A stretch of DNA of 64,000 bases from a virus, in the IMG/VR virus record IMGVR_UViG_3300036831_000148, positions 64,001 through 128,000 of that record; one strand, 5' to 3'. Under the pieces are notes generated by a model, which had not been told where the DNA came from, did no database searches, and worked only from the letters and a program-made list of their open reading frames with translations. A program made the position numbers and the translations under genes. Shown here piece by piece: positions 47,720-64,000 of this stretch; position 1 is the stretch's first letter; each line of letters starts with the position of its first letter.

Positions 47720-47890
47720 TCAGAAGTTGTCGGTGGCGAGGAACAAGCCGGATCCCGCGTCCCACCAGATCAGGCACACGGTGCCGTCCCGGTCGGTGGC
47801 TTGCATGCTGTCCGCGTCGCCGGCGCGCATCTCGTCAAGGTCAGCCTGCGCAAGCCCGGGGAACGCTTCCCGCATCTCGTCTGAGGTCAT
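47720..47890 (-). CDS. small hypothetical protein (56 aa), leaderless
   Basis: TTGACT-17-TACAGT-6 nt-ATG; MTSDEMREAFPGL... Confidence 0.6.
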   Translation of the reverse strand: MTSDEMREAFPGLAQADLDEMRAGDADSMQATDRDGTVCLIWWDAGSGLFLATDNF

Positions 47891-47976
47891 GCCCTCACTG
47901 TACAGATGTACTTGACTAGAGTCAAGGCTAGAGATTATCCTGCAGGTACATCAAACCGGAAGGCAGGCAAGCCAGG

Positions 47977-48366
47977 ATGAACAAGCCGCTGGTCAGGACT
48001 AACGGGGCATACGCGCGGGTCACCCGCGCCGGCGCAGTACAGCTAAACCCCCCTAACGCCTACTGGGAGCCGGGCAGTGAGAGCCTGCTCGCTGAGTCGC
48101 ACGGCGCGGCCTCCGTTATTACCCACCTCGTCATGGCGGGCCGCCTCACCGTGAACGAGCTAGCCGGCGAGTTCCTGCGGCTAGTGGAGGCTGACGTTGC
48201 GGCCGGCTACGTGGGGTGGGACATGCCTGACCTGCAGTACCTGTGCGACAACACCGACGCCAACAGTTACGGGCTGGAGATACTCGGCTGTGACATGTCG
48301 GACGAGGGCATGGAACTTTGGAACAACGTTTACGAGCGTGTTGACGAGCTCCTGACAGGCCGCTAG
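47977..48366 (+). CDS. hypothetical early protein (plus strand)
   Basis: TTGACT-18-TATCCT promoter and leader CCGGAAGGCAGGCA on the + strand. Confidence 0.75.
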   Translation: MNKPLVRTNGAYARVTRAGAVQLNPPNAYWEPGSESLLAESHGAASVITHLVMAGRLTVNELAGEFLRLVEADVAAGYVGWDMPDLQYLCDNTDANSYGLEILGCDMSDEGMELWNNVYERVDELLTGR

Positions 48367-48381
48367 CTCGCGTTTCCGCAC

Positions 48382-48423
48382 GCCTGCTAGCCCGCCAGGT
48401 CTCGACCTGGCGGGCTAGCAGGC
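48382..48423. terminator. bidirectional hairpin
   Basis: gcctgctagcccgccaggtc-tc-gacctggcgggctagcaggc. Confidence 0.7.
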
Positions 48424-48594
48424 GTGCCGCGGCAGCCCTCGCGGGAGAGCTGGCGGCCAGCTGAGGGAGAGTTCCCAGTACGGATCTTCCCGGCCTGGGG
48501 CATCACCGGGCAGGCTCATTACCGCTACCGGCGCTTACGCGCGCTGGCCCCCCTGGAGGCTGCCTCCAGGGGGGCGCAGTGCCGGCGAGGCCGG

Positions 48595-48927
48595 CTAGCT
48601 CGCGTAAACCCACCTGACCACTAGGTCAGAGTCACGGTCCGCCGCGTACGCGTCATCGGCGATCTTCTGGGCGGGGGCGCTGCGGGTGAACAGGTGAAGG
48701 GCCTTGCCCGCCGCGTAGTCGCTGGCCTTAGCCTGCGGGACGTAGCGGAACACGCCGTACAGGCCGGTTTCCGTGTAGAACGTCCCTCCGCAGTAGGCGC
48801 AGCGCTTGCGCTTCGGCCGGCCCTCGCCGCTGGTGTGGCTTCCGCTGACGCTGAGGCTTGACGCGCAGTAGTACCGCGTCGCGCGGCCGGCGGGGACCTT
48901 AGCCGGGCTGGTCTGCTGACTGGTCAT
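48595..48927 (-). CDS. hypothetical protein
   Basis: CAYCG. Confidence 0.6.
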   Translation of the reverse strand: MTSQQTSPAKVPAGRATRYYCASSLSVSGSHTSGEGRPKRKRCAYCGGTFYTETGLYGVFRYVPQAKASDYAAGKALHLFTRSAPAQKIADDAYAADRDSDLVVRWVYAS

Positions 48928-48936
48928 GGGGTGCCC

Positions 48937-49527
48937 TCACATCCTGGTAACGGTGAAGCCGGGGACCATGGTCACGTCCGCCGGCTTGCGGGTGTAGGTA
49001 CCCGGGACGCGGTAAGAGCGGCCGGCGGCGGGCATCTCGCGCAGGCACCCGACAGGCCGCGCGCTGGCCGCGCTGGTGTACAGGTAGAACAGTTCGGCGC
49101 CGGCGCCGCACACGGAACGCGTGACCGCAACGGCCGTGATGTCATGGGCGGGCACGGCCTCGCGCGGCGCGCTGCACTCGGATTCGCTGCAGCCCGCGTG
49201 CGGGTGCCAGTCTCCCGGGCCGGCGCCGCACGGGTCATCGCGCGTGCTGCGGCAGTAGTAGTAGCCGACGCGGGCCTGGGAGCAGTGGTTGGCGCGGACG
49301 CGGTCCCTCTCGGCCTCGCTGCGGTCATTCAGTTCAGTGAAACGGACGCCGGCCTCCGCGCAGCGCTCGCGGTAGGCGTAGGCCTCAGCCTCGCTGAGCA
49401 CGCGCTCAGCCTCGCGGCGGTAAGCGCTGGTCTCCCGCCATGCGGCCCCGTGCCGGTCACGGTCAAGCGCCGCGCGGCCGGCCGCCATCATCTCAGGGTC
49501 AAACTCGGGATAGTAAGCGTCAGTCAC
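48937..49527 (-). CDS. Cys-rich hypothetical protein
   Basis: ORF in the cassette. Confidence 0.6.
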   Translation of the reverse strand: MTDAYYPEFDPEMMAAGRAALDRDRHGAAWRETSAYRREAERVLSEAEAYAYRERCAEAGVRFTELNDRSEAERDRVRANHCSQARVGYYYCRSTRDDPCGAGPGDWHPHAGCSESECSAPREAVPAHDITAVAVTRSVCGAGAELFYLYTSAASARPVGCLREMPAAGRSYRVPGTYTRKPADVTMVPGFTVTRM

Positions 49528-49538
49528 GGCCGGGCCTC

Positions 49539-49754
49539 TCAGAATCCCATGAGCGCGTCAAGTACCGCGCTGTCCAGGGCAGGGGCCTCGATACCGCCGC
49601 GCGCGTAGGCTGCCGCGGCAGCCCGCACGTGCGGGAAGCGGTCCAGCATGTGGGCCGCCATCTGCGCCGTCTCGTCGTAGCCGAATTCGGCAGGGTCCCC
49701 CTTGACGCGGTCTATGGCGTCTGCCGTGTGCGCTAGCTGTATCGAGTCGTACAT
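49539..49754 (-). CDS. hypothetical early protein
   Basis: leader and promoter upstream. Confidence 0.65.
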   Translation of the reverse strand: MYDSIQLAHTADAIDRVKGDPAEFGYDETAQMAAHMLDRFPHVRAAAAAYARGGIEAPALDSAVLDALMGF

Positions 49755-49764
49755 GGTGCCTGCC

Positions 49765-49819
49765 CCTCTCGGTTGCCTGTGGCCCTACTGTACAGGGTCA
49801 GCTTGACTAGAGTCAAGAG
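49765..49819 (-). repeat. 55-bp promoter/leader block identical to 50746-50800, near-identical copy at about 51071-51120
   Basis: cctctcggttgcctgtggccctactgtacagggtcagcttgactagagtcaagag at both sites. Confidence 0.85.
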
Positions 49820-49840
49820 GCTAGGCAGGAGAGGGGACAG

Positions 49841-49880
49841 AAAAACCGGGCGCGTTCATCTTTCATCAAACGCGCCCGGT
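49841..49880 (-). terminator. Rho-independent terminator
   Basis: accgggcgcgtt...aacgcgcccggt followed by TTTTT on the minus strand. Confidence 0.7.
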
Positions 49881-49908
49881 CTCCCGGTATCCAGTTGTCA
49901 CAGCATAG

Positions 49909-50133
49909 CTAGGCAGGGGGCAGGCCGGCCAGGGCCTCGCTCACCTGCCACGCGGGCAAGCGCAGGCCGCCAGCGTCGGCGAGCGCCGTAGCCGTCTCGC
50001 GGTCGGGCGCGTACACGGCCGCCGTGTCAAACAGCCAGCACCGCAGCCCGGCCGCGCCGCCGTAGCCGGGCAGGCAGCCCGGCGCGCGGAAGCGGAACAC
50101 GGCGCGGCCGGGCTCGCGAAAGTCCACGTCCAC
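49909..50133 (-). CDS. hypothetical protein
   Basis: TAGTG coupling. Confidence 0.5.
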   Translation of the reverse strand: MDVDFREPGRAVFRFRAPGCLPGYGGAAGLRCWLFDTAAVYAPDRETATALADAGGLRLPAWQVSEALAGLPPA

Positions 50134-50735
50134 TAGAACCCCAGGGCGGTACCGTAAGCGCGGTCAGCCTCGCTGACCAGGCGTGCCGCGTGGTCAATGG
50201 CGCGGGCAAGGCCCCGCGCCGCTAGCCGCAGGTCGGTACGGACCGTGTAGAAGTCCACCAGCCTGCGCGGGTACTGCTCAGGCTCAGCAGTGAAGGGGAG
50301 GCCGCTGCCGCCGGGAACGTCCATGCCGGCCGCGCGCAGCCGCGCGTAAAAGTTCTTTGACTCGTCATGCGTGCGGGTCACGTAGTGGATTTCGTGCCCC
50401 ATGATGACGTGCCCGGTCGCAATGCGGTCAAGCAGCATGGACACGCCGGCCGGGCAGCCCTCGCCGCGCGCCATCTCCCGCAGCGTCTCGCGGGTCCCGT
50501 AGGGAACGAACTGGGCGGGCTGGTCACTGTGGGGAACCGCCCACTTGCACGCTTCGGTAATGCACTGGTGGCCGGCGCCACGGTGCCCCATGAGGCAAAG
50601 GTGGTAGCCCTCTTCGCACACGTAGACCTCATGGCCGGCGTAGGTGACGCCGGCCAGCTCCCACGGCGCGCCGCACGGGTCAAGCTGGGGGGTGACCGCG
50701 GCGCTGGTCCGCTGGTCAAGGATGATGATCGTCAC
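50133..50735 (-). CDS. hypothetical early protein
   Basis: leader and promoter upstream. Confidence 0.7.
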   Translation of the reverse strand: MTIIILDQRTSAAVTPQLDPCGAPWELAGVTYAGHEVYVCEEGYHLCLMGHRGAGHQCITEACKWAVPHSDQPAQFVPYGTRETLREMARGEGCPAGVSMLLDRIATGHVIMGHEIHYVTRTHDESKNFYARLRAAGMDVPGGSGLPFTAEPEQYPRRLVDFYTVRTDLRLAARGLARAIDHAARLVSEADRAYGTALGF

Positions 50736-50801
50736 TTGCTGCCTGCCTCTCGGTTGCCTGTGGCCCTACTGTACAGGGTCAGCTTGACTAGAGTCAAGAG
50801 A

Positions 50802-51053
50802 CTAGCAGGCGCTCGCGTGCTCGCACCGCGTGCCGCCGTGCCCCAGGTCAGCCGCGTACCAGCGGACCAGCGGCCAGCCCTCCGGGTGTACCAGCACGTC
50901 CGTCCGGTAAGTCGCGAACGAGAAACCCTGCTCGCGCGCGGCGGCATCCAGCCTGTCCGCGTAACCGGGTACCTCGGTGTCCGGAATGGTGAGCTCTGCC
51001 TGCTCTATGGCGCCAGGGCTCTCTGTCGTCCATGCGTACGTCCGGAGTTTCAC
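50802..51053 (-). CDS. hypothetical early protein
   Basis: leader and promoter upstream. Confidence 0.65.
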   Translation of the reverse strand: MKLRTYAWTTESPGAIEQAELTIPDTEVPGYADRLDAAAREQGFSFATYRTDVLVHPEGWPLVRWYAADLGHGGTRCEHASAC

Positions 51054-51171
51054 GGGGTGCCTGCCTCTCGCTCGGTTGCCTGCCCCTACAGTACAGGGTC
51101 AGCTTGACTAGAGTCAAGAGTACAGCGCCGCTCGCGCCGGCGGGGAGGCTAGCGCGAGCGGCGCTGCATTA

Positions 51172-52509
51172 TCACACGCGCGGTACTCCGAGCCTGGCGA
51201 GGTAATCCGGTACGGGAACAGGGTCGCCAGGAACGCCGGCCCGTACCCCGGCGGGAGCCGGGGCAGGATCCGGGGCACTCGGGCGCGCGGTGCCCGGCCT
51301 GACCCCGTAAACCCGGTCTGAGCCGTCAGGGTGGGCGTAGCGGGCTACGTGCACGGCTTCCCGGTCGGGAAGGGCTCGCCAGGTCAGCACCGCGCCGGCG
51401 TCCGCTGCGGCAGCGGCGCGTGCATCCTCGCGCGTGGCGAACTCCCCGGGAAGGTAGATGTTCGCGTCCGGGCAGCGGTCACGGCGTACCAGGCAGAGAA
51501 CCGCGAACGGCCCGGGGTCGCTGTCGGCCGGCGGGGCGGCCGTGCCCGCGGTCAGGGCGAGCACGGGCCGCGAGCGCTGCAGTTCCGCCGTGCCGGCGAG
51601 CTCAGCGGCCGCAATGCGGGCGCTGCGGGCGCTGGCCGAAGCCACGAACTCAGCGTGGGCAGCCACCCCCAGGCCCGTTATGACGTACCGCTGAGGTTCC
51701 GCGCCGCTGCCGTTGGCCTTTTCCTGCAGGATGACCCGTACCCGCTCGTCTTCCGGGCTGAGGTCAACGCGCAGCACCACGCGCAGCGAGTCAAGCACCG
51801 CCGGCGAGCCGGCCACCTTCCCGTCCTTGGTGAAGTGGTGCAAGATCACGAACGCGATGTCAGCGGCTCGCGCGAACTCGGCCAGCTCGACCATGACGCG
51901 CCTGGCCCGCTGCCGGTAGTCAATCGAGTAGCCGTCAGACAGCAGCGCGGACAGCGAGTCAGCTACCACCATGCCGACGCGCGGGGTTCCCTGCTCGTCG
52001 GCCTCGCGGTTCATCATGCTGACAACCTGGGCGATGCGCGGGCAGTCAGCTGGGATGGTGACCAGCCCGCCGTCTAGCCAGCGCGAGAGGTTATGGACGA
52101 GGTGAATAGCGCCGTCCGGGCCTTCGCCAGCCAGCTCAGGCTCTAGGCCGAACTCGGCTACCGCGCGCGCGATGGCGGCGCGCAGCCGCGGCGCCAGGTC
52201 CTCGTAGGCGTCATCCTCGCCAGGGCCGGTGATCCACAGCACGCGGACGGGCTCGCGCCGCTCCTCCTGGTCGTCGCCGGGGAACGGGAGGCCGAGAACC
52301 AGCCGCGCGGCCACGGCCGCCGTGAGGAAGCCCTTGCCCGTGCCGCCTTTCGCGGCGATGACAACGGGTGACCCTACCGGGATGTAGCCGCGCCACCACC
52401 AGCGCCGCTCAATAACCGGGTAGCTCCCGAAACCAGGGGCGACGCGCCCGGATCCGGGAACTGGGCTAGGTGCGGGCTGCACCTCAGCCAGCACGTCAGT
52501 TAGCGACAT
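51172..52509 (-). CDS. AAA_25 / RepA-like P-loop ATPase (helicase-like)
   Basis: WWWRGYIP, IAAKGGTGKG, VVADSL, ILHHFTK, AGS, EKANG; start ATG 52509 after the leader. Confidence 0.75.
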   Translation of the reverse strand: MSLTDVLAEVQPAPSPVPGSGRVAPGFGSYPVIERRWWWRGYIPVGSPVVIAAKGGTGKGFLTAAVAARLVLGLPFPGDDQEERREPVRVLWITGPGEDDAYEDLAPRLRAAIARAVAEFGLEPELAGEGPDGAIHLVHNLSRWLDGGLVTIPADCPRIAQVVSMMNREADEQGTPRVGMVVADSLSALLSDGYSIDYRQRARRVMVELAEFARAADIAFVILHHFTKDGKVAGSPAVLDSLRVVLRVDLSPEDERVRVILQEKANGSGAEPQRYVITGLGVAAHAEFVASASARSARIAAAELAGTAELQRSRPVLALTAGTAAPPADSDPGPFAVLCLVRRDRCPDANIYLPGEFATREDARAAAAADAGAVLTWRALPDREAVHVARYAHPDGSDRVYGVRPGTARPSAPDPAPAPAGVRAGVPGDPVPVPDYLARLGVPRV

Positions 52510-52626
52510 AAGCGCCTGCCTTTCATCGGTTGCTCTACCTGCGATGATATAGCAGGGCTTGACTTGAGTCAAGACAAGCAGCAGCCCGCCAGGCCACCCG
52601 GGGGGCCTGGCGGGCTGGTCAGGGGG

Positions 52627-53094
52627 TTAGCGGGGCTGAGCCTCGCGCATGCGCCAGTAGTCGAATACCACGCGGTCGCGGACGTTCGGGTTAAGCGTGT
52701 GCACCGTGCGAACGCCGTACGCGCCGTCCTGGGTGACCAGCGCCAGCGTGTACTGAGCGTTACTCATGGCCGCGGTCATCAGGACCGGCTGCAGCGCGTA
52801 GAACCCGCCCGGCCCCATCCCGTCGCGCGGGTCACCGCTCAGGAACTCGCCGTGCGACTCGGCGGCGTACCCGTACAGGACCCGCGTCGTACCCCACGTG
52901 CCCGCGTCCGGAAGGTCGTTCTCCAGGGTCAGGCCGCGCTCCGTCATCCAGCGGTCAAGGCCGGCCCGCGTCTCGAACGCGGTGTGGGACATTGACCCGT
53001 TGCTGACTATGAACCAGTAAGGGCCGTGCCGCTCGTGCTGCTCGGCCGTCAGCGAGGTAACTTGCAGCTTGTCAAAAACCTGCCGGTAAACCAT
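52627..53094 (-). CDS. hypothetical early protein
   Basis: leader and promoter upstream. Confidence 0.7.
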   Translation of the reverse strand: MVYRQVFDKLQVTSLTAEQHERHGPYWFIVSNGSMSHTAFETRAGLDRWMTERGLTLENDLPDAGTWGTTRVLYGYAAESHGEFLSGDPRDGMGPGGFYALQPVLMTAAMSNAQYTLALVTQDGAYGVRTVHTLNPNVRDRVVFDYWRMREAQPR

Positions 53095-53161
53095 GGGTGC
53101 CTGCCCTTCGGTTGGTTGCCTGGGGCCAGTTTACCGGCAGATCTTGACTAGAGTCAAGAGA

Positions 53162-53506
53162 TTACCTGGCGGGCCTGGTGAACTCCCCGCAGGTCTGGCA
53201 CCACCCGGCCTGGTACTTGGCGCACAACTCACAGGCCGCGCTGCCGCACCCGTCCGAGCTGTGGTAAACGTGCGAGTCGAACGTCTCGGTTACCGGGTCA
53301 AAGTCGCCGAATGTAGAAGTGCTGAGGATGTTGAAGCACACCGGGCAGGAGGTTTCCGCCATGCGCTGGCAGTCACCGCACCCGGGGAACCGGGCGAAGT
53401 TCTCCGCGCAGTGCATCACGTTGACCGTTGCCGAGTGCCGGCCGTCCGCTGTCGGCTTGTCCGCAGCGCGCGGGAGCCGGTAGGCGTAGCTCCTGGGCCC
53501 GCTCAT
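53162..53506 (-). CDS. Cys-rich hypothetical protein
   Basis: several CxxC; ATGA coupling. Confidence 0.6.
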   Translation of the reverse strand: MSGPRSYAYRLPRAADKPTADGRHSATVNVMHCAENFARFPGCGDCQRMAETSCPVCFNILSTSTFGDFDPVTETFDSHVYHSSDGCGSAACELCAKYQAGWCQTCGEFTRPAR

Positions 53507-53736
53507 GCCCCCGCCGCCTGCCCGGCCGCAACCGCCTCGTAACGCTCGGTATCGTGGTCAAAGGTCAGCAGGTGACCGGGCGCGGCCAGGTCCGGCCCCT
53601 TGGTCATGTGCACCGCGCCGACGTCACGAGCCCAGCTCATGAGCCTGCGCGCGCGGGTGTTGGAGACCAGCGTGCCCGCGGGCGACTGGCCGGAGGTGAG
53701 CCAGCTAAACGCCTGGTCGTGAGTCATCGGGTCCAT
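53503..53736 (-). CDS. hypothetical early protein
   Basis: leader and promoter upstream. Confidence 0.65.
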   Translation of the reverse strand: MDPMTHDQAFSWLTSGQSPAGTLVSNTRARRLMSWARDVGAVHMTKGPDLAAPGHLLTFDHDTERYEAVAAGQAAGA

Positions 53737-53806
53737 GTGCCTGCCCCTCGTTGGTTGCCTGCGCCCATCTTACCGGCAAGGCTTGACTAGAGTCAAGGTA
53801 CAGGCT

Positions 53807-54082
53807 CTAGCGCACCGCCACAGACAGCCGGGGGAGGCCACTAATCCAGTTCTCTAGCGCCTGGTCGCGGCGCCGCTGCTGCGCTGCCGTCAGCCTGGAG
53901 GCCGGGTCGTACCAGATGCCGCGCCCGGCCGTGTAGCGCGTCTCCAGGCTGCTCGCGGCGAGGGTGACGGTACCGTCGTCGTTTACCGCCACGTCGGCCC
54001 ACAGGGGCACGAACCTGCGCCACCACTCAGCGGGGCGCGGGAAGGCGGGCGCGTCGATCTTGCCCTGGTCAATGACGATCAT
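53807..54082 (-). CDS. hypothetical protein
   Basis: ATGA coupling. Confidence 0.55.
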   Translation of the reverse strand: MIVIDQGKIDAPAFPRPAEWWRRFVPLWADVAVNDDGTVTLAASSLETRYTAGRGIWYDPASRLTAAQQRRRDQALENWISGLPRLSVAVR

Positions 54083-54354
54083 GATTCCTCGCTGCCGGTA
54101 AACCGGAAGTCCACGCCGGCGCACAGGCCGGACGCCGCGCTGTTGTCGGCGAAGGTGACGGAGTAGCGGGTCCACGGATTCGAGCCGTGCGACTCGACTC
54201 TGGTCACGACGCCTTTAAGGCCCGCAGGGATCGGGAGAAGGTACCTGGCGTAGTCAGGATCCCCCCAGCCGGGGAAGTCAGCGGACCGGCGGCGGTGCCG
54301 CGCGCCGAGCGCAGACACCGGCCGCCCCTTGTCGCCGTCGTGAACGTTGCTCAC
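54079..54354 (-). CDS. hypothetical SH3-like protein
   Basis: IPAGLKGVVTRV...YSVTF. Confidence 0.55.
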   Translation of the reverse strand: MSNVHDGDKGRPVSALGARHRRRSADFPGWGDPDYARYLLPIPAGLKGVVTRVESHGSNPWTRYSVTFADNSAASGLCAGVDFRFTGSEES

Positions 54355-54833
54355 GCGGTAGCCTCGCCGCGCTCGTGGTCAGGCCAGATCCAGTTATAGC
54401 CGCCGCTGCCGAACTCCGGGCCACCGAACGGCGTGCCGTTGCGGTCAAGCCGGGGAGGCAGGTAGCGGCGCGTGCCGCCCGCCAGGGCGAACAGCCAGCC
54501 GGACATGTCGTACGGGTAGCTGTCCACCACGCCGACGCGCGCGGCTATGGCCGCGGTCAGGTGCGGCTCGGGGCAGTGGCACCCGTTGATGACGTGGCAG
54601 AAACTCGCGTGGCTGCCGGTGATGCTGGCCGCCGCCTGCTCGCGCGAGGTGAAGCCGCTGCCCCACTCGCCGCACAGCAGGCACTCGGCGCAGTACGCCA
54701 TGTCAGGGTGCCTGCTGTGCCAGGTGCGGTAGCGCGCGGTGCGCTGCTCGCGGAGGGCCCTGTCAAACTTCACGAACCCGGGCACGTACGCCAGGCGCAC
54801 GGGCCGGGCCGCGGCGGTCGGGGTGATGGTCAT
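54351..54833 (-). CDS. hypothetical early protein
   Basis: leader GCGAAAGGCAGGCAGCCATG. Confidence 0.7.
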   Translation of the reverse strand: MTITPTAAARPVRLAYVPGFVKFDRALREQRTARYRTWHSRHPDMAYCAECLLCGEWGSGFTSREQAAASITGSHASFCHVINGCHCPEPHLTAAIAARVGVVDSYPYDMSGWLFALAGGTRRYLPPRLDRNGTPFGGPEFGSGGYNWIWPDHERGEATA

Positions 54834-54914
54834 GGCTGCCTGCCTTTCGCGGTCAGGCGGGGGGCCTTACGGCCACCCCGCGTGACTCCACTATAAGGCT
54901 TGTCTTGACTTGAG

Positions 54915-55172
54915 TCAAGATGATGACGACAGCACTTCCCGGCCCGCTCCGGTCAGCTCAAGCGCGTACGGCCCGGCAACAGTCCCCGGGCTCACCAGCC
55001 CGGCCGCGATGGCACGGTCAACCGAACGGTAACCGAACTGCAGGCCGCACTGCAGGCCTGTCTCCGGGTGCGGCGCCACGTGGCGGGCCGGCCCGATCTT
55101 CGCGCACCCCGGGTTAGCCGCCACGTAGGCGAGCACCTCGCGCATCCGGGGGCCGACGCGGGGCGCTCTCAT
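54915..55172 (-). CDS. small winged-helix-like protein
   Basis: VLAYVAANPG...YRSVDRAIAAGLV...LELTGAGREVL. Confidence 0.55.
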   Translation of the reverse strand: MRAPRVGPRMREVLAYVAANPGCAKIGPARHVAPHPETGLQCGLQFGYRSVDRAIAAGLVSPGTVAGPYALELTGAGREVLSSSS

Positions 55173-55672
55173 GACACAGCCTGAAGGGTAGCCGCGAGCT
55201 CGACCCAGCGCAGTTGGTAGCCCGTGCGCCAGTGCCGCGAGCGGCGCCGGGAGATCATGTCATCGCTGGTGGTCAGTTCGCCGGCCACCCAGTCCGCATC
55301 GCACTGCGCGATGCCGGCGGCGGCCTGCTCGGCCTCGGCCTGCGTGCCCGGGGTACGGCGGCCGAGGTTGAACGTAGGCGTGCTGAACGGCGCGAGGGCG
55401 GGCCGGAAGCTGCCGCAGCCGGCGCAGCCGGGCGCGAGGCAGGTACCGCCCTCGCCGTGGTCCACGCCGCGGTGCGCGCACGCGCACAGCATCCGCAGCC
55501 GGATCACCGCGAAGCGGATGCGCCCGAACTCCTCCGGGCGAGCCGGGCGGACGCACCCGCCGAGCAGTTCGGCCAGGTTCTCGTCTGTCGGCTGCTGGCC
55601 GTCGCGCGCGTCCACGATGAACTTAACCCCGTAGCGCTCCCAGCGCCGGGCGAGTGCTTTCTCTGATGCCAC
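55169..55672 (-). CDS. hypothetical early protein
   Basis: leader and promoter upstream. Confidence 0.65.
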   Translation of the reverse strand: MASEKALARRWERYGVKFIVDARDGQQPTDENLAELLGGCVRPARPEEFGRIRFAVIRLRMLCACAHRGVDHGEGGTCLAPGCAGCGSFRPALAPFSTPTFNLGRRTPGTQAEAEQAAAGIAQCDADWVAGELTTSDDMISRRRSRHWRTGYQLRWVELAATLQAVS

Positions 55673-55784
55673 GGTGTCCTGCCTTCCGGTCGGCTGCCTG
55701 TCCCCTGATCATATGCTCTGACTTGACTAGAGTCAAGATAAACGCCAAGGCCCCCGGGGTGACCCCGGGGGCCTTGCGCTGCGG

Positions 55785-55964
55785 CTAGAACGCGTAGGCA
55801 CGCAGGCCCTGGCGGCTGCCACGGCGCTCGCGGCGGGTGTAGCTCACCTTGACCAGGCCGCGCCGTCCGTGGTTCCAGCGGTGCGCCCTGTGGAGCCGGC
55901 TGAACGCCTCTACCTCGGTGGCGGTCTTGCAGGGGCGGTTGTGCATCTTCTCAACATCGTTCAC
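55785..55964 (-). CDS. small basic early protein (59 aa)
   Basis: manual translation MNDVEKMHNRPCKTATEVEAFSR...; leader GCGAAGGGCAGGCAACC. Confidence 0.55.
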   Translation of the reverse strand: MNDVEKMHNRPCKTATEVEAFSRLHRAHRWNHGRRGLVKVSYTRRERRGSRQGLRAYAF

Positions 55965-56034
55965 GGGTTGCCTGCCCTTCGCTGTGGTGTTGTACCTTCA
56001 TCGTAGTGCAGAGCTTGACTGGAGTCAAGACATA

Positions 56035-56068
56035 GGACAGCCCCCGGAAGATCTTCCGGGGGCTGTCC
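56035..56068 (-). terminator. hairpin terminator
   Basis: ggacagcccccggaagatcttccgggggctgtcc. Confidence 0.7.
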
Positions 56069-56078
56069 TGCCGGGGGG

Positions 56079-56486
56079 TCAGAGGCCGGCTACGAGGTAC
56101 TCGGCGAGGTCGGCCAGGGTGACCGGCTCAAGGTTCCGCCGGACGATCCGCCAGTAGCGCCCTTCGTCCCCGCCCAAGTCAGCGGCGTTGACCTTGTCGC
56201 CCTTGTCCGCGAGCACGACCAGGATCTTGCCGGCCATCCTGCCGACCTTGGGGCGGACGAACTCACCGGGGGAGTAGTAGCGGTACGTCTCCGGCGCGGG
56301 CTGGGCCTGCGCGGTGCCCCCGCCAGCCTCGCCGGTGACCGGGAGCACGAACTCCTTGGCCGCCTTCAGTTGCCGCCCGTTCTGCTCCAGGCCGTAAGAG
56401 ACCCTGTTGACCTTGGCCACGGTCCACGTGCCCGGCCATTTGTCGCTGTCCACCCGGACCTTGTCGCCTACCTTGAACTCTTCCAT
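56079..56486 (-). CDS. tandem SH3/KOW-like protein
   Basis: FKVGDKVRV...; YSPGEFVRP... Confidence 0.65.
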   Translation of the reverse strand: MEEFKVGDKVRVDSDKWPGTWTVAKVNRVSYGLEQNGRQLKAAKEFVLPVTGEAGGGTAQAQPAPETYRYYSPGEFVRPKVGRMAGKILVVLADKGDKVNAADLGGDEGRYWRIVRRNLEPVTLADLAEYLVAGL

Positions 56487-56591
56487 CTTCCTGCCTCTCG
56501 CTTGACTGCCTGTAGCCCTACTGTAGTGCAAGGCTTGACTAGAGTCAAGACACGAAACGGGCCACCTGCGCAGGTGGCCCGTTTCTGGCGG

Positions 56592-57170
56592 CTAGCTGGT
56601 GCGCCTGAGCATCTCAGCGGTAAGCGCGTCCTGCATGTGCTGCAGGTCCGCCGTCGCGCGCTCGTTCCCCTGCGCCCCCGCCAGGCGAAGCTGCTGGTCG
56701 GCCAGGTCCTGACGGCGCCGGATCTCGGCCGTGCTCAGCGTCTTGAACAGTTCGGCTGCCTCGCGGCCTGTCTCGCCTGTCCAGTGCTGCCCGCCGACGA
56801 ACGCGGACCCGTCGCGGATGACCTTGAACCGCTCGGTAAGGACGCGCTCCAGTTGCGCGAACCCGCGGGCCACGTCAGTGGCCTTGTGGCCGTGGAACTC
56901 GTTAACCCGGCCGAACACGCCGGGGTCCAGGCGCGTGCCGTCCTCAACCCCGTGCCAGCTCAGCAGGTAGGTGTCCGGCGCGACCAGGCCAGCGTCGAAT
57001 TTCACGGTCAGCTTCAGCCCGTGCGGGCCAGCCAGGTCAACCGACGTGCACCGGGTACCCGGCTCCTCCAGTTTGTGCGAGGCGGTCAGCCCGTACCAGG
57101 TAGCCAGGGCGGCCACCCGGGCGGCCATGGCCGCCCGGTCAGCCTTGCGCCGCGCGCTCAGCTCAGGCAT
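56592..57170 (-). CDS. hypothetical protein
   Basis: coupled ORF. Confidence 0.65.
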   Translation of the reverse strand: MPELSARRKADRAAMAARVAALATWYGLTASHKLEEPGTRCTSVDLAGPHGLKLTVKFDAGLVAPDTYLLSWHGVEDGTRLDPGVFGRVNEFHGHKATDVARGFAQLERVLTERFKVIRDGSAFVGGQHWTGETGREAAELFKTLSTAEIRRRQDLADQQLRLAGAQGNERATADLQHMQDALTAEMLRRTS

Positions 57171-57831
57171 CCCCGTAGCTCCGGGCCGTCACGAGGCCGA
57201 GCAGGTAGGGCCCGGCCGGCTCCTCGACCGGCTCGACCCACTTGCCGGATGCCCCCGGCTCGTAATGCCCCTTCTCCAGCACCTTGACCACCTCGGCCTG
57301 AATGGTGGCAGTCACGTGGCCGGTAGCCGCGCTCCGGCGGAACAGCACCCGGACGGAGCCGAAGCGGTGGCCCTCCGGCAGCCGCTCGCCGGCCAAGTCT
57401 GACAGCCATTCGAGTTCTTCCGCCTTGATGCCGGCGTGCCCGCCGTCAGCCAGGGCGAACATGGCCCACAACTGGCCGTTGTCGTCACGGTCGAACATCG
57501 GGCACCCGGCGACCCGCGCCCGGATGCCGAGGTCCCCGCCGGCCTGGCGGGCCATGAAGTCCGCGAGGTTGGGGATAACCGGCTCGCCGTTGTTGTCCCC
57601 CCTGGCGCGGCGGACGCCGGCGTTGTCCGCCTCGTACGCGCCGGGCTCGTCGGCCGGGAGGTTGTAGGAGGCCAGCAGGGCCGCCACGCGGCTCGCGCGG
57701 ACCGCCCAGTAGCGGTTCGTCGCCCACCACTCGCCCTCGAACTTGTTGACGGCGAGCGGCGCGGGGCCGTGCTTGAGGGAGAACCGGCCGGTAACCATCT
57801 TCCTGGCCGCGGTCGCGGGGTTGGGTGCCAT
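57163..57831 (-). CDS. hypothetical early protein
   Basis: leader and promoter upstream. Confidence 0.7.
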   Translation of the reverse strand: MAPNPATAARKMVTGRFSLKHGPAPLAVNKFEGEWWATNRYWAVRASRVAALLASYNLPADEPGAYEADNAGVRRARGDNNGEPVIPNLADFMARQAGGDLGIRARVAGCPMFDRDDNGQLWAMFALADGGHAGIKAEELEWLSDLAGERLPEGHRFGSVRVLFRRSAATGHVTATIQAEVVKVLEKGHYEPGASGKWVEPVEEPAGPYLLGLVTARSYGDA

Positions 57832-57894
57832 CTGGGTGCCTGCCCTTCGGTTGACTGCTTGCAAGCCCTACTCTAATGCAGAGCTTGACTAGAG

Positions 57895-58146
57895 TCAAGC
57901 GCGAGGGCGGGACGGCTGCATGTTCAGCACCGTGTCCGCCGTCTGGTGACCAGCTGCGCCGAGCAACTGCAGGGACACGTTCAGCACGGCCGCCAGGCAG
58001 GTACGGCAGATGTTGCGGACCCGCATCGACCCGTCCGGGGTGAACAGCGGGACCGGCAGCGAGGGGGCGTCCCCGTCGCCGCACAGCGCGCACGCGGTCT
58101 CCACCAGCGGGAGAACCTGCGTGTCGCCGCCCCTGCTCACGGCCAT
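57895..58146 (-). CDS. small Zn-finger protein
   Basis: CALC...ICRTC. Confidence 0.55.
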   Translation of the reverse strand: MAVSRGGDTQVLPLVETACALCGDGDAPSLPVPLFTPDGSMRVRNICRTCLAAVLNVSLQLLGAAGHQTADTVLNMQPSRPRA

Positions 58147-58448
58147 CCCCCCCAGCTAGTCTCGATGCCGAGCGCCGCAGCGCCCGCCAGCAGGATGTCA
58201 GACCTGGCGCGGCTGCGCGCGGGAAGGTCCAGGTAGGCGAACAGGCGGCCGATCGCCGCCAGCAGGCGCACCAGGCCGGACAAGTGCACCGCGTCGCGCT
58301 CGGGCTGGTCGGACATCACCCAGTCGGCCACGCTGGTACGCGACGCGCGGCGCAGCAGCACGGCGAACGCTATCCGGTCCTCAGTCTGCCGGTAATGCTC
58401 GGGCCGCGCGCGCCGCAGCTCGCCGAGCAGGTCATCGTTGGCTGTCAC
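58137..58448 (-). CDS. hypothetical protein
   Basis: SD AAGGA. Confidence 0.55.
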   Translation of the reverse strand: MTANDDLLGELRRARPEHYRQTEDRIAFAVLLRRASRTSVADWVMSDQPERDAVHLSGLVRLLAAIGRLFAYLDLPARSRARSDILLAGAAALGIETSWGGWP

Positions 58449-58474
58449 GATCCTTGTCTCCCGCTTTGAAACCG

Positions 58475-58511
58475 GTAAAGAGCGGGGGCAGTTACTGCCC
58501 CCGCTCTTTAC
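58475..58511. terminator. perfect 17-bp hairpin
   Basis: gtaaagagcgggggcag-tta-ctgcccccgctctttac. Confidence 0.6.
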
Positions 58512-58549
58512 TACTACGTCCGGCGGTCACCGCACAGGCGCTCCGGCCA

Positions 58550-59629
58550 TCACCCCGCATCATCCTGAGCAGGGACAACCCAGTGGCCGGCGCTGTAGGT
58601 CACGCCAGCCTCCGCCGGGCCGCCGTCGTGCACCCGCTTGACGATGTTCGCCGCGCGCATGCGGCTGTAGCCACGGGCTGCAAGCCATTCCACGGCCTCG
58701 CGCCGGTCAAGCTGGCCGCGCGCGCGGCGGGCCTCGGCCGGGTGACGGCGCGCGTCGCGGTCGGCTTCGGCCTCAGCCTCGGCCGCGACGCGGTGCGCGG
58801 TGGCCAGTTCCTCGGCCAGTCCGGGCGCGCTGACCGCGACGCGCGCCGTCACCCGGCCGTGGAACGTGGTGAGCTCAAGCACCACGGTCAGCGAGGCGTC
58901 CACCGCGACCCAGAGCCTGGGGCCGACCTGACAGCGGTAGACATCGGCTGCGATGCGCTCCGACAAGTCAGGCTCCGTAGCCTCCGGGCCGGCGCCCAGC
59001 GCGTCGCCCAGCGCGGTCAGGGCCTCCGCTACCTTCAGGTCGCCGGCGGCGCGCGGGTACCTGAGAGCAAGGCGCTCGCGCGCCTGCCGGAGGCAGAGCC
59101 GGGCCTGTCCGCTGGCGAGCCCGGCCTCGCGCCGGTCAAGCTCAGCCTGCGCGCAGGCTGTAGCGGACTGCGGCCCGGGGTGCGCGTGCGAGCAGGACCA
59201 GGAGAATTTCTGGCCGCCCGCGAACCGGTACCAGGCGGGCTCGTCGGAGATGATCCCGATGTAACTGCAGTCCCCGGAGGGGGACAGTGCCCATGTCGCG
59301 TGCCCGGTTACCGGGCCCGCCTGCGTCGTGTCCTCGGTCACCGGGTCCGGGGTTACCTCGGTCACCAGGGACGCGGGCCCGGCTGCGCCGGCTACCAGTT
59401 CCTCGCCGGCGCCGAGGAACTGGTAGCCGGTAAAGATCCGGTTCGGGTAACTGTCCAGCCGGATGTACCAGCCGTCAGCGTGCTCCTCAGTGTAGAGAAT
59501 GACGCCAGTGTGCTCCGCTGTCAGCTCGCGCTCGCCTGTCGTGGGCGCGATGTAGCGCCGCACCGTCACCCGGTCCCCGGGGCGGGGCACGTAGGCCCCG
59601 CTCCCGGCCTGCTCCTGCGTACTGGTCAC
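58550..59629 (-). CDS. hypothetical multidomain protein
   Basis: 359 aa, GTGA coupling. Confidence 0.65.
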   Translation of the reverse strand: MTSTQEQAGSGAYVPRPGDRVTVRRYIAPTTGERELTAEHTGVILYTEEHADGWYIRLDSYPNRIFTGYQFLGAGEELVAGAAGPASLVTEVTPDPVTEDTTQAGPVTGHATWALSPSGDCSYIGIISDEPAWYRFAGGQKFSWSCSHAHPGPQSATACAQAELDRREAGLASGQARLCLRQARERLALRYPRAAGDLKVAEALTALGDALGAGPEATEPDLSERIAADVYRCQVGPRLWVAVDASLTVVLELTTFHGRVTARVAVSAPGLAEELATAHRVAAEAEAEADRDARRHPAEARRARGQLDRREAVEWLAARGYSRMRAANIVKRVHDGGPAEAGVTYSAGHWVVPAQDDAG

Positions 59630-59862
59630 CGCTTTGCCTGCACCTTCGCCAGGATGTCCTCGGCCAGCATCTCGGCCGTGGCCAAGTCAAAGGTAATGCG
59701 CTCGTTCGGCCACTTGGTGGCATCGACCACCAGGGTCAGTTCGTTGTCGTAGTCGTTCTCCACGCCGACCTTGAGGCCGGTCTGCCCGTCCTCGCCCAGG
59801 AAGTCCGCCATGTCTGACAGGCGGGTGCCGCCCTCGGTGGTCATGCTCTCGGTTACCCGCAT
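59626..59862 (-). CDS. hypothetical early protein
   Basis: leader and promoter upstream. Confidence 0.65.
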   Translation of the reverse strand: MRVTESMTTEGGTRLSDMADFLGEDGQTGLKVGVENDYDNELTLVVDATKWPNERITFDLATAEMLAEDILAKVQAKR

Positions 59863-59919
59863 CGGGTGCCTGCCCTTCGCTCGGCTGCTTTATACTGCCA
59901 GCGTAGTGTATGGCTTGAC

Positions 59920-60114
59920 TCAAGTCAAGGTAAGAACCGGCCTCTTCCACAGGACTACGTCTACCGGCCAGAGGGCGACGTGGAACCAGCAGAGGTCGTT
60001 GTTGAAGTTGGCGCACCACCAGTACCCGAATGGCCGGTGCCGGTCGATCGAGAACGCGAACTGCCCAACCTCAACCTCAACCGCGAACACCGCCCCCATC
60101 CACTTAAACCTCAT
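59920..60114 (-). CDS. small Trp-rich early protein
   Basis: leader and promoter upstream. Confidence 0.55.
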   Translation of the reverse strand: MRFKWMGAVFAVEVEVGQFAFSIDRHRPFGYWWCANFNNDLCWFHVALWPVDVVLWKRPVLTLT

Positions 60115-60228
60115 GTGCCTGCCCTTCGCTCGGTTGCTGATAGCTCTACTGTAGTGCATGGCTTGACTAGAGTCAAGACATACGGCAGCCCCGCGCCGGG
60201 GAATCGGGCGCGGGGCTGGCTGAGGGGG

Positions 60229-60678
60229 CTAGGCGAACGTGACGGTCATCGTGTAGCGGCCGGCGGCCCGGTCGTAGCGGACCACGCCGGTGATGCCGTG
60301 GAGGGCCTCGAACTCGGCGAACTCGCTGCTCCCGAACTGGGCGAGCACCGCGTTGGACTCCCGGGGGGTCATCCCGACGCGCGGACCCCGCAGGAAGGAG
60401 AGAACGTCAATGCGGGTGAGGTCGGGGAAAGTCTCCTCAGCCGGGGACGGGCGGTTCCAGCCGCCGACGCGCTCCATGAACTCGGCGATGTGCTTGCAGA
60501 TGGTGACAGCGGGGACGCCGTCGACCGTGATCACCCAGCCCTTGCGGTTGATGAAGTCGGGGCATTCGCAGGACGGGAGCGTGACCTGGTAGGCGCGCGC
60601 GCCGTCCCTGGCGCTGCGCACCAGGCCCGCGGTCGGGTAGACGGTCATGTCGTAGGTCTTGGCGGTGCTGGAAGGCAT
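60229..60678 (-). CDS. SWIM zinc-finger protein
   Basis: YQVTLPSCECPDF...CKHI. Confidence 0.75.
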   Translation of the reverse strand: MPSSTAKTYDMTVYPTAGLVRSARDGARAYQVTLPSCECPDFINRKGWVITVDGVPAVTICKHIAEFMERVGGWNRPSPAEETFPDLTRIDVLSFLRGPRVGMTPRESNAVLAQFGSSEFAEFEALHGITGVVRYDRAAGRYTMTVTFA

Positions 60679-60865
60679 GTGCCTGCCTCTCGGTTGGCTG
60701 CTGTACCTCCATTGTAGTGCACTGCTTGACTACAGTCAAGACATCTGCCCAGGGAAAGAACAAGGGACCGGAGCACGGGGGCTACTCCGGTCCCTTGAGG
60801 GGGATGACCAGCCGGCGATCTTGGGGAGGTCACGTCGGCGCTTCACGTCTATTATCACACCGCTG

Positions 60866-61183
60866 TCAAGCGGGCGGCCCCGGGCCAGAGCTCCCGCCGG
60901 GCGGGGCGGACGGCCCGGCGTCATCCCTGACGCGGTGGCGGCCCGCCGGGCGGCCGCTCGCCCGGGGGGGCTCCCCGTGCACCGGCACCTCGTTCACCCG
61001 GACCGCGACCTTCACCGCCTCAGCGGGGTCTACCACGACCACCAGCACGTCGCCGTAGGTGTAGACGTACACCCGGGAGCCGCCCAGCTCCACGTACGGG
61101 TGCGGCTCGCCGTCGGCGGGGTGGAACACCGCTGACCGGGACGCCGTGCGGTCATCCTCGCTGAGCTGCTCTAGAACCGGCAT
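60866..61183 (-). CDS. hypothetical protein
   Basis: ATG 61183 behind a palindrome promoter. Confidence 0.55.
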   Translation of the reverse strand: MPVLEQLSEDDRTASRSAVFHPADGEPHPYVELGGSRVYVYTYGDVLVVVVDPAEAVKVAVRVNEVPVHGEPPRASGRPAGRHRVRDDAGPSAPPGGSSGPGPPA

Positions 61184-61271
61184 GCGCGCGCCCTTCGCTC
61201 TGGGTCTGACGGAACTTGTTCGGACTTGTTGCCGAACACCATAGTGAAGCGTCTTGACGCTAGTCAAGATC

Positions 61272-61734
61272 CTAGTACTGGCCGAAGAGGTAGGTCTCTC
61301 CCCGGACCGTACCGTCCGGCCGCGTGCGGTTCGCGTTGGCGATGATGTGCCCGTGCTCGGCCCACCAGGCGGCCAGCCGCACGTGCTCCTGCACGTCCCA
61401 CGCGCGCATCGAGGCGACAGCCCGCCGGACATCGGCCGGGAGCCGGTCCGGGGCCGGCGGGACCTGCTCGCGCTTCCACTGCCGGATCCGGGCCGCGCCC
61501 ACCACGAGCGGCTCGCCGCGGTGATGAACGATGCTGCGGGAACCGGTGTAGGAGGGCGCGCCGGGGGCAGCGCCGACCCCACTCCACCCGGTCCGCCAGG
61601 TAGGTGCACGGCGCGCCCCTGGCTGCCTGGCAGCGCGGGCACCTGACCTCCCGCGCGTCGGCGCCGGAGACCGGGCCGCTTGCGCGGTCGTATGTCAGCG
61701 GTGGCCCGACCGGGCCGGTCCTGGTCACCCTCAC
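61272..61734 (-). pseudogene. Zn-finger protein with an apparent frameshift near 61580
   Basis: VRCPRCQAARGAPC in one frame; protein-like C-terminus (ARIRQWKREQ...) in another. Confidence 0.4.
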
Positions 61735-62117
61735 CGCGTCTCCAGCCAGCAGGCAGGCCACCAGCTCTCGTAGCCGTCGTCCAGCAGCACGTGCACGCTC
61801 GCGCCGTCGGTGCTGATGAACCAGGGCACCAGGTCGCCGTCCGGCAACCAGCACGCGTGGCGCTCCGGCACGCCCGGCGTGACGATGCCGTGCTGGCCGA
61901 GCCGCCAGTGAACCGGCGTGCCGAGCCACACCGGCGCGCCGGGCGGGAACTTCGCCTCCAGGCCCGGCAGCAGGTCGCGGGTGAACGCGTCATCGATGCC
62001 AAGCTCCGCCGGCAGGGTGACGTGCGCCATCTCCGCGGCGCCGGCCTCGCCGTACCCGCCTGACGTGTGCTCGCGGCCCCCGATCAGGGTGATGACCGCC
62101 CATGTCCCGCCGTTCAT
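61731..62117 (-). CDS. hypothetical protein
   Basis: TGATG coupling. Confidence 0.6.
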   Translation of the reverse strand: MNGGTWAVITLIGGREHTSGGYGEAGAAEMAHVTLPAELGIDDAFTRDLLPGLEAKFPPGAPVWLGTPVHWRLGQHGIVTPGVPERHACWLPDGDLVPWFISTDGASVHVLLDDGYESWWPACWLETR

Positions 62118-62554
62118 CAGGGCTCCTCCGCAGGGATCGGGTCGCAGACCTCGCACGAGCGCGACGGGCACCAGTCCGCAGACCTGGTGCAGTCCAGGCA
62201 GCCGTCCGGGTAGCGCTCGCGGTGCGCGGCCTCGCCTGCGGCCCGCCAGTCATCCCCGGCTGCCAGGTCGGGGCGCGCCTCCGTCCAGAGGGCGTGCGCC
62301 TCTTCCACGTCGGTGCGGAACCAGGTGATCCCGAACATTGCGACATGACTCACCCAGCCGGCCCGCACGCTCTGGTAAGCGGAGTCACTGTGGTCGTACC
62401 CGAGGGACGAGATGTCAGCCGGGTCCACCCCGGCCGAGGTGCACACCGCCGCGCGGAGGTCTGCTACCGAGGTCTCAAAGTTGGCCCGCTCTACCGGGTC
62501 ATCCGGACGGGCGCAGCCGGCGAGCGCGATGAACGTGACGCTGGCCGCGCTCAC
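62117..62554 (-). CDS. hypothetical protein
   Basis: GTGA coupling; C-terminal Cys cluster. Confidence 0.6.
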   Translation of the reverse strand: MSAASVTFIALAGCARPDDPVERANFETSVADLRAAVCTSAGVDPADISSLGYDHSDSAYQSVRAGWVSHVAMFGITWFRTDVEEAHALWTEARPDLAAGDDWRAAGEAAHRERYPDGCLDCTRSADWCPSRSCEVCDPIPAEEP

Positions 62555-62901
62555 TTCGCCGGCTTCCCGTCATCCAGCACGCACGTGGCCTCGTAGTCGT
62601 CCCACCGGCTCAGGAGCTCGGCCACGGGCACGGGGCCGTCCTCAGACTCGCGCTGCACGTAGGCGAAGAACGCCCCGCCGATCTGGGCGAGCGAGGCGGC
62701 CAGCGCGGTCAGCGCCGGCATGACGTCGTACGCGCCGTCCTCACCCTGGCTCAGGTGAGGGGACACCCGCTCCAGGTAAGGCAGCAGGACGTCTGCCGCC
62801 GAGCCGGCGGGCCCTTCGGCCTCGGAGAACTCGATTGCCTGGCGCACCAGCGCCATCGCGGCGAGCAGGGCCTCGTCCTGCGCCGGGTTTTGACCGTTCA
62901 T
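62551..62901 (-). CDS. hypothetical early protein
   Basis: leader and promoter upstream. Confidence 0.7.
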   Translation of the reverse strand: MNGQNPAQDEALLAAMALVRQAIEFSEAEGPAGSAADVLLPYLERVSPHLSQGEDGAYDVMPALTALAASLAQIGGAFFAYVQRESEDGPVPVAELLSRWDDYEATCVLDDGKPAK

Positions 62902-62963
62902 GCTTTGCCTGCCTCTCGGTTGCCTGTGCGCCCAGCCTACCGGCTTCGCTTGACTTGTGTCAA

Positions 62964-63775
62964 GAAAAAGGTGAGGCCCCCCGTGTGCGAAAGGCAGGCA
63001 ACCAATCCACGGGGGGCCTCGCCGCAGAGGGGACGCGCTCCGCGCCGGGCTACTCGGCTAAGTGGGCAGATCTGGCGCGCCGGGAGACGCCTCGCCCGGC
63101 GGGTTCCCCTCGCCGGCGCAGCAGGCCCGAAGGCCTGCCACGATCTTCAGTTGTCCCTGCAGCCCGCCTAAGCGGGGTAAGACGGGCTGCAGAGCCTTGC
63201 GCCCGGGTGCCTGGCCCGGGGAGCCTGTTCAGTTTTCGCAGCGGCCGGGCGCAGGACCAGTCCGGGGCCGGAACCGCCCGGCCGCCACTTCGACCCATCT
63301 GAGGGTGCACCTCGGTAGCCCGGGGTCGCGGCGGGCTACCACTCAGCTAGTCCCCGGGCCAGGTGTTTCGCTGGTCCGTAGCGGTGTCGGCGCGCCGGCC
63401 GTATTTGGTCTCAGCGCCCCTCACGCGTTCGCCAGGTACTTGACCTGGCCCGGGAAGCTAGAGGACAACGGCCATCGGTTTCCAACCCCGGCCCGCGGAG
63501 ACGCCAGGCGGCGAGCCTGACGCGGCGGAAGGCCCTGGCCTAGCAGGGTCCCGCTGCCCTCAAGTCACTGTTCAGTTACCCGCCAGGGGCGGTATCGCTA
63601 GCGAGTCCGGCAAGCCGGGTTCTGCCGCGCTGTACCCCTCCCTGACGGGAGTCTTAGTGAGCGAGGCCCTGGGCGGAGGGGGCTGCGGCCTGCTCTGTGG
63701 CCGGTGTGCTGCCTTTCGGGCGCTCCTGGCCGGTCCCTCTCTTGCCTGCTCGCTGGCCTTCCGGCCTCGCTCACA
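62964..63775 (-). ncRNA. large (~810 nt) structured non-coding RNA, family unknown
   Basis: promoter TTGACA(63810)-18-TAGCCT; no credible ORF; many helices including a C(UUCG)G tetraloop at 63121-63138 in minus sense; 3' hairpin plus U-tract at 63020-62965. Confidence 0.72.
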
Positions 63776-64000
63776 ACTACAGGCTAAAGGCTGGCCTTTA
63801 CTCCTGTCAAGAGAATCAGCGGGGATTCTTCCGGTCCGCCAGCAGCCGCAGCGCGGGCACCGGCCCGGTCACCCTCTCCTGGGTTCCCCGCTCGCGCTGC
63901 CATGCCTGCGCAAGGCCGATGCGGGCGCGCCAGGCGAGCTGGGAGACGGCGGCCGGGCTCAGGCCCCACTCAGTTGCCAGGCTGGTCACCGGGAAGCCCT

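Follow-up and report, generated by a model that had tools for sequence, protein, structure and literature searches.

The 64,000-nucleotide stretch analysed here (the window) comprises positions 64,001 to 128,000 of the virus record IMGVR_UViG_3300036831_000148. At its far end lies the gene for an extracytoplasmic function (ECF)-type sigma factor, followed on the minus strand by a candidate non-coding RNA that ends in a hairpin, the loop of which is complementary to a sequence tag in the leaders of early phage genes. The whole record is 146,268 bp in length, has a GC content of 71% and overlapping ends, and codes for a PolA-type polymerase, helicases, a portal protein, a terminase, and major head and tail proteins. 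The closest polymerase from a cultured phage is 33% identical, and no tyrosine integrase or serine recombinase domains were found in the genome. The host-side homologs of the phage sigma factor are actinobacterial in every case; judged only from these homologs and the GC content, the host would belong to the class Actinomycetes. The features of the locus are as follows.

63816 to 64000, minus strand: 3' end of the ECF-type sigma factor gene (186 amino acids; PF04542, PF08281)
63781 to 63810, minus strand: SigA-type promoter (TTGACA, 18 nt, TAGCCT), from which the RNA is predicted to start near 63774
62960 to 63774, minus strand: candidate non-coding RNA of about 810 nt, built of self-contained hairpin domains chained by A/C-rich linkers
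63350 to 63460, minus strand: conserved core domain, in which two invariant strands flank a variable arm (alignment of 15 copies)
62970 to 63023, minus strand: 3' terminal hairpin with a terminator-type lower stem, an enlarged loop and a U-rich tail (62960-62969)
62986 to 63007, minus strand: anti-leader loop, with apical UGCCU at 63000-62996, invariant core at 63000-62993 and a weak upper stem GGU/GCC

The RNA interval contains no convincing open reading frame (ORF) and folds with z = -4.9. Framed by a promoter and a terminator-like end, and without a conserved ORF, it is predicted to be a separate transcription unit. Comparison with Rfam (6C, GOLLD, ROOL, OLE, 6S/Ms1 and others) returned nothing credible at gathering or E-value thresholds. 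Relatives were found through the adjacent sigma factor gene, which has about 68 homologs at 57-70% identity, several of them on contigs of about 150 kb, and which sits immediately upstream of the RNA in all close relatives. Every close relative examined has a gene-free, promoter-led gap of about 330-900 nt after the sigma gene, likewise headed by a promoter of the same type and direction; no gene was called in these gaps, except for a small gene inserted ahead of the RNA in L089. Neither the exact loop sequence nor the DNA polymerase had a match in the viral contigs searched, BLASTN of the RNA found no match among cultured phages, and no prophage-like copy of the RNA was present in the genome contigs searched. 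P0076 and P0111 turned out to be host genes, and G007 is an incomplete genome without the RNA locus.

Across phages, the RNA varies in length from about 330 to 1,300 nt through the gain and loss of whole modules, which are shuffled between relatives; even near-identical phages differ by entire modules. This is visible in four contigs with the same sigma protein, in which RNA modules are inserted or exchanged at A/C-rich linkers (L003:10573-11130, L004:3858-4800, L005:3558-4120 and L006:666-1430); the RNAs of these four also contain a complete tag. The modular RNA resembles a cassette array, and its A/C-rich linkers could be processing sites. Two covarying pairs were found in the alignment of the core domain, which is missing from L010 and L096, both of which keep the loop, and present in G005, a more distant phage without the anti-leader loop. 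One invariant strand of the core domain (63420-63436, minus) resembles 16S ribosomal RNA (rRNA) positions 93-107 in 13-14 of 15 bases, a likeness that was picked after the fact (shuffle p <= 0.005). The other (63371-63382, minus) matches 8 of 9 bases at 16S position 320, which is not significant alone. The 16S-like strands are possibly a ribosomal-protein site or a decoy. In the 5' domain, two leader-like stretches (63735-63755 and 63705-63725, minus) could pair with the RNA's own loop. We conclude that the RNA is a real conserved feature and represents a new RNA family.

The terminal hairpin is found at the same position in all 16 close phages with readable DNA (this phage and fifteen relatives). 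A previous sequence-only reading had placed its stem at 62973-62985/63008-63020, enclosing a 22-nt loop at 62986-63007, and these coordinates were borne out. The lower stem has 12-17 bp and differs in sequence among the 16 phages, with two-sided changes in 9 of 14 consensus pairs; the loop core UGCCU(G/A)CC is fixed in all of them. In 16 of 16 homologs the 22-nt loop refolds into a weak upper stem of 3-6 bp that carries an apical loop of 4-6 nt, (U)GCCU, and the apical UGCCU complements AGGCA, the best-conserved stretch of the leader tag. The loop is by far the best accessible leader-pairing site of the RNA (-18.9 versus -8.8 kcal/mol for the next). Other terminators of this phage have stems of a similar type, with loops of only 3-8 nt. 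The copy of the motif in the loop (62988-63000) is the only exact copy that does not precede a start codon, and the only match to the extended pattern inside a hairpin loop. Internal G-U versus A-C oppositions in the hairpin (7:1) favour the sigma-sense (minus) strand; the folding energy of the whole RNA did not separate the strands. We rejected a plus-strand decoy, in which the loop would display the tag itself, given this ratio and because no plus-strand promoter faces the loop and the promoters of relatives run in the opposite direction.

The tags that this loop could address are distributed over the window and beyond it.

43172 to 62918, minus strand: about 19 early leaders with the tag GGCAGGCA (at most 1 mismatch); cores start at 43172, 45880, 46561, 47092, 49757, 50740, 51058, 52513, 53098, 53738, 54837, 55680, 55969, 56488, 57837, 59867, 60116, 60680 and 62906
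47957 to 47969, plus strand: leader tag of a gene that starts at 47977 and has its own promoter at 47912
Genome positions 134862, 136912 and 137278: three more tagged leaders, outside the window

The tag pattern has 23 matches at no more than one mismatch, compared with 2.35 +/- 1.55 expected; the exact pattern within the window marks 15 minus-strand leaders and 1 plus-strand leader (47957), plus the loop copy. The sequence-only reading had counted 21 tagged start codons, which agrees with the numbers obtained here (about 20 in the window and about 22 genome-wide), but only with relaxed matching. Its three example leaders do offer 18, 17 and 15 contiguous pairs with one G-U each, at coordinates that are those of the start codons and not of the motifs. 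Because the plus-strand gene carries a plus-strand tag, the tag follows gene direction: it is an asymmetric motif in a single orientation relative to genes, 1-7 nt before the start codon (mostly 1-5 nt, mode 4, for the 8-bp core). In nearly all cases it lies about 25-45 nt behind its own promoter, which bears a palindromic TTGAC-n4-GTCAA over the -35 box, and nearly all tagged genes are the first gene after their own SigA-type promoter. On rough gene calls, promoter and tag occur together in 21 genes, a promoter alone in 8, a loose tag alone in 10 and neither in 170; the energies of duplexes with the loop average -26.5 among promoter-led genes and -16.6 among the remaining genes. Tags are restricted to non-structural genes that follow intergenic gaps and have an upstream promoter and inverted repeat. 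The palindromic element overlaps the -35 box in nearly all of about 35 SigA-type promoters (13850-62963 and beyond). Variants ending in GTAAAG occur at the RNA's own promoter and at some untagged promoters, the variant in G005 is GTCAGG, and opposed promoter pairs share one palindrome at 45926/45939 and 47912/47925.

The tagged leaders are short, stand behind host-type promoters and retain an ordinary Shine-Dalgarno (SD) sequence, GARRGG, which pairs with the actinobacterial 16S end as confirmed in four actinomycete genomes (mean duplex energy about -10 to -12 kcal/mol). Purine-only variation in the leader positions that face UUU of the loop had been taken as part of a private code; the pattern is real, but it is equally predicted by the normal SD and needs no special code. 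The argument that conservation of CAGGCA in the spacer goes beyond SD selection holds, as its 84-96% conservation per position among 197 leaders exceeds the needs of 16S pairing. A second upstream AGGCA or AAGCA is present in 105 of 179 leaders. Since the leaders are partly open (mean unpaired probability 0.54), the RNA is unlikely to activate them by unfolding. Matches to the extended tag are scarce in two actinomycete genomes (0 and 2, versus 7 and 9 for the control), and the target set therefore looks phage-specific.

The predicted loop-leader duplexes, at -20 to -31 kcal/mol, compare with -10 to -12 for the 16S end, and relatives show how far loop and leaders change together. Leader position -1 is opposite the first loop base beyond the core. 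In 8 genomes this loop base is C, and 0-11% of their leaders have A at -1; in 3 genomes it is U, and 59-100% do. The U/A state has at least two origins on the sigma tree. In L010, a leader GAGA is matched by a loop UCUC over four positions. When 14 loops were compared with 14 leader sets, cognate pairs were favoured (permutation p = 0.0008, with a permutation that ignores kinship), and loops paired almost equally well with the leaders of relatives. The covariation that the sequence-only reading had proposed to look for is thus present at position -1, and we regard it as genuine but modest evidence. The overall pattern is that of a seed that is conserved and accessible and whose complements lie in unlinked targets; covariation is confined to one position, with about two origins. 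In most genomes the leader of the gene adjacent to the RNA falls into the lower half of the ranking (mean rank 0.59); it is the best match in L012, L017 and L018 and the second best in L096 and L010. This lack of preference for the neighbouring gene suggests that the RNA acts in trans.

On this evidence the RNA is probably a phage-encoded, trans-acting antisense repressor of early translation. It would be made from the start of infection and accumulate through its stability. The apical UGCCU would pair first with AGGCA of a leader; the weak upper stem would then open, giving a duplex of 9-18 bp over the SD and spacer that ends a few bases from the start codon. Such a duplex would block 30S loading and probably hasten decay of the mRNA. 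Middle and late genes, many of which are apparently leaderless and carry no tag, would escape the RNA and are probably transcribed by the neighbouring phage sigma factor. The expected outcome is that early proteins, as a class, are shut off or damped after a delay. Of 31 coding-strand elements of the CGATTA type, 17 are placed exactly 13 nt ahead of a start codon, that of the portal gene included, and the same spacing is seen in G005; these elements are probably phage-sigma promoters from which leaderless middle and late mRNAs arise. Examples of these elements are the following.

Window positions 10880, 9851, 15118, 11839 and 7508: CGATTA/CGTAGTA/CGTATAA-type elements
Genome positions 45714, 41416 and 36799: further elements of these types

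A separate case comes from start-associated sequences (SAS) together with extended SAS (ESAS), which are known from cluster K mycobacteriophages and cluster EF Microbacterium phages; the papers on them leave the function unknown and propose no antisense partner (PMC3203893, PMC7302621, PMC11373665, PMC12699233). No role for SAS is given in PMC11373665, nor in a 2025 survey. In K1 phages, a long hairpin carries the single inverted SAS as its loop of 10 nt. In Angelica the inverted SAS and the 10-nt loop coincide exactly; the region folds there at z = -5.6, and this hairpin region is present in 140 records. Six K1 phages retain the loop with changes in the stem, two K6 phages have one loop base altered, and in K3 the loop is replaced. 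In Adephagia the hairpin sits between gene 92 and gene 93, and RNA-seq indicates that late transcription appears to begin between these two genes (PMC11373665). The hairpin is annotated as a hypothetical gene or as intergenic, depending on the record (L154:33560-33680, which is Angelica 58559-58679, and L157:601-740 in Adephagia). The cluster K loop also resembles a generic anti-SD, and in DarthP the loop differs and the SAS does not, so that loop/SAS covariation is not shown in cluster K. As an independent parallel, the K1 case is suggestive rather than general.

Several observations weigh against an antisense repressor. G005 (150,822 bp) has related promoters, 17-19 leaders that end in AGGCA and an RNA of about 1,300 nt with the core domain, and no anti-leader loop was found in it by pattern, energy scan or covariance-model search. 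K2 and K3 phages keep SAS without the loop in the stretches examined, and no inverted SAS was found in the examined stretches of TM4, Pixie or the cluster EF phage AnnaSerena (8000-56707). Most leaders in 3 of 14 genomes do not pair with the base that follows the loop core, the signal in the cross matrix is driven mainly by four genomes, and the internal stem can account for part of the core conservation (GCC). The RNA shares its promoter family with the early genes, and timing would therefore depend on accumulation. Sequence alone cannot separate repression from activation. Relatives that keep the leader and lack the loop had been named by the sequence-only reading as a result that would speak against it: all 16 close phages keep the loop, and the distant G005 has the tag only. 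As the tagged leaders of G005 show, there is a reason other than the loop for the tag to exist; the tag is probably older than the loop and may serve another purpose as well. The middle position of the G005 tag, which would face the loop G, is relaxed (C 41% and A 41%, compared with C 84%; one genome), as expected if the loop adds a constraint. G005 also has a short hairpin with anti-tag and tag as its two arms, at the end of the early region (L146:14940-14970, G005 about 34940-34970).

We weighed the antisense repressor against other explanations of loop and tag. The sequence-only reading had described the loop as an anti-SD with one inserted G. The stretch in question, CCUUUC, is unique to this phage (relatives have CCCUGC, CCCCCG, CCAAAC, CCGCUU and CCGGCU), and the invariant loop seed faces AGGCA in the spacer. 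With the anti-SD-like part of the loop not conserved and the leaders usable by the host anti-SD, an orthogonal anti-SD was rejected, and we regard an orthogonal-ribosome reading as very unlikely. The claim that one RNA addresses a gene class fares better, being supported by conservation in 16 phages, covariation at one position, specificity for early promoter-led genes and the lack of preference for the adjacent gene. That the RNA would be a ribosome-binding adaptor, with a core domain that mimics the 16S 5' domain and a loop that acts as a private anti-SD helix for tagged mRNAs, strikes us as highly improbable; if so, tagged phage mRNAs would be translated through a phage-owned code even with impaired host anti-SD function. 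More generally, pairing could be positive, with the RNA stabilising early mRNAs or adapting ribosomes to tagged leaders. The 8-bp core lies at about the location of an SD helix, and the post hoc resemblance to 16S positions 93-107 is what such a role might leave. However, the leaders have a usable SD and are not structure-locked, the anti-SD-like part of the loop varies, the core domain is missing in two loop-keeping phages and present in the loopless G005, and a duplex that covers the SD competes with the 16S end for it, an established mechanism of small RNAs (sRNAs). We consider positive action quite unlikely.

It is also unlikely that pairing plays no regulatory part, with the tag instead binding a protein, optimising translation or serving as a DNA site, and the loop being a conserved hairpin for a protein or the remnant of an inverted leader. 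This would fit the survival of the tag without the loop in G005 and of SAS without the loop in K2, K3 and EF phages, the structural conservation of apical loop and upper stem, the conversion of U-G to U-A in L010 at the cost of one leader pair, and the second upstream AGGCA or AAGCA, which recalls tandem protein sites. It leaves unexplained the exact complementarity of the loop, the covariation at -1 (outside the upper stem in most homologs) and the separate K1 phage case of unrelated sequence. Action in cis would have the loop work on the leader of the following gene in a read-through transcript or, as a pseudoknot or switch, on the RNA's own 5'-domain stretches; this draws on the five relatives in which the adjacent leader ranks first or second and on the predicted pairing of the two stretches (-18 to -20 kcal/mol). 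The adjacent leader is mostly in the lower half, however, a separate promoter for the following gene comes directly after the hairpin, the leader-like stretches are absent in L007, L012, L017, L094 and L096, and covariation follows the genome-wide leader set. A cis-only model is unsupported overall, and we give cis action a very low probability. There is slightly less to be said for defence against the early leaders of related phages, or for damping of toxic early genes in a carrier state, in place of lytic timing: loops pair nearly as well with relatives' leaders and the promoters bear a palindromic operator-like element, whereas loops track the leaders of their own phage and integrase or recombinase domains were not found. 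The molecular mechanism would in any case be identical antisense pairing.

Some neighbouring genes may be noted. A gene for a PadR-family regulator lies just 5' of the sigma gene (L001:4430-4741, genome 128430-128741, minus), and a gene with a TraD/TraG-like coupling-protein domain (PF12696, PF10412) lies in the window at 38566-40266 (minus). Two Phage_ProQ_C_like (PF24203) genes, one of them tag-led, are near the RNA (genome 134525-134842 and 133326-133619, minus); ProQ-C-like and PapZ-C proteins were rejected as obligate partners, as these domains are patchy near the locus among relatives.

Phages are thought to end early expression by proteins: repressors, anti-sigmas and nucleases. In T4, the repressor RegA and the nuclease RegB control early mRNAs; class-wide early shut-off through the ribosome-binding region is the common element, brought about there by proteins and not by a pairing RNA. 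What the present genome suggests is a single RNA that reaches 20-30 mRNAs by way of a co-evolving standard tag, with late genes escaping as leaderless. Loop-initiated antisense RNAs include CopA/CopT, ColE1 RNAI, and RNAIII and RsaE of Staphylococcus aureus, which resemble the present hairpin, as interpreted here, in having a small apical seed loop, a bulged upper stem that opens, a longer duplex and occlusion of the ribosome-binding site. Unlike the RNA described here, CopA/CopT and ColE1 RNAI are cis-encoded and have a single target, and RNAIII and RsaE belong to the host and regulate unrelated targets. Structured RNAs of several hundred nucleotides are known in phages from GOLLD, ROOL and OLE (PMC12286853), each with one conserved ornate fold, whereas this RNA is modular, about 330-1300 nt in length and without an Rfam match. 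Terminator loops also act in regulation in Escherichia coli, there probably without pairing (PMC11979758).

The closest mechanism is that of the 6C sRNA of Mycobacterium and other high-GC Gram-positive bacteria, whose C-rich hairpin loops repress many mRNAs by loop pairing without an RNA chaperone (PMC6486639). It is host-encoded and short and has diverse G-rich sites; here there is one standard tag, on the phage's own early class. The sequence-only reading had known of no described system like this. Its parts have precedents, as tags of this kind have been published as SAS (PMC3203893) and chaperone-free repression by loops is known in actinobacteria (PMC6486639); in the literature searched, the coverage of which is incomplete, we found neither this combination nor a phage RNA that hits its own early class through a shared tag. 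A tag and a hairpin RNA would make a compact, chaperone-free tool to silence gene sets in actinobacteria.

The tags themselves compare most directly with SAS, being start-associated, in one orientation and apparently acting alike. They are not cluster K SAS proper: the 13-bp consensus is not matched within 2 mismatches, and the tag sequence differs. Sequence and phages are unrelated, and the antisense copy here ends a stand-alone modular RNA with an early-type promoter. In K6 phages the loop has changed while the SAS stayed constant, whereas here the loop covaries with the leaders. RNA-tag pairing may explain mycobacterial-virus tags that have been unexplained since 2011, and the same layout in cultured K1 phages turns the question of SAS function, still called unknown in 2024-2025, into a simple test.
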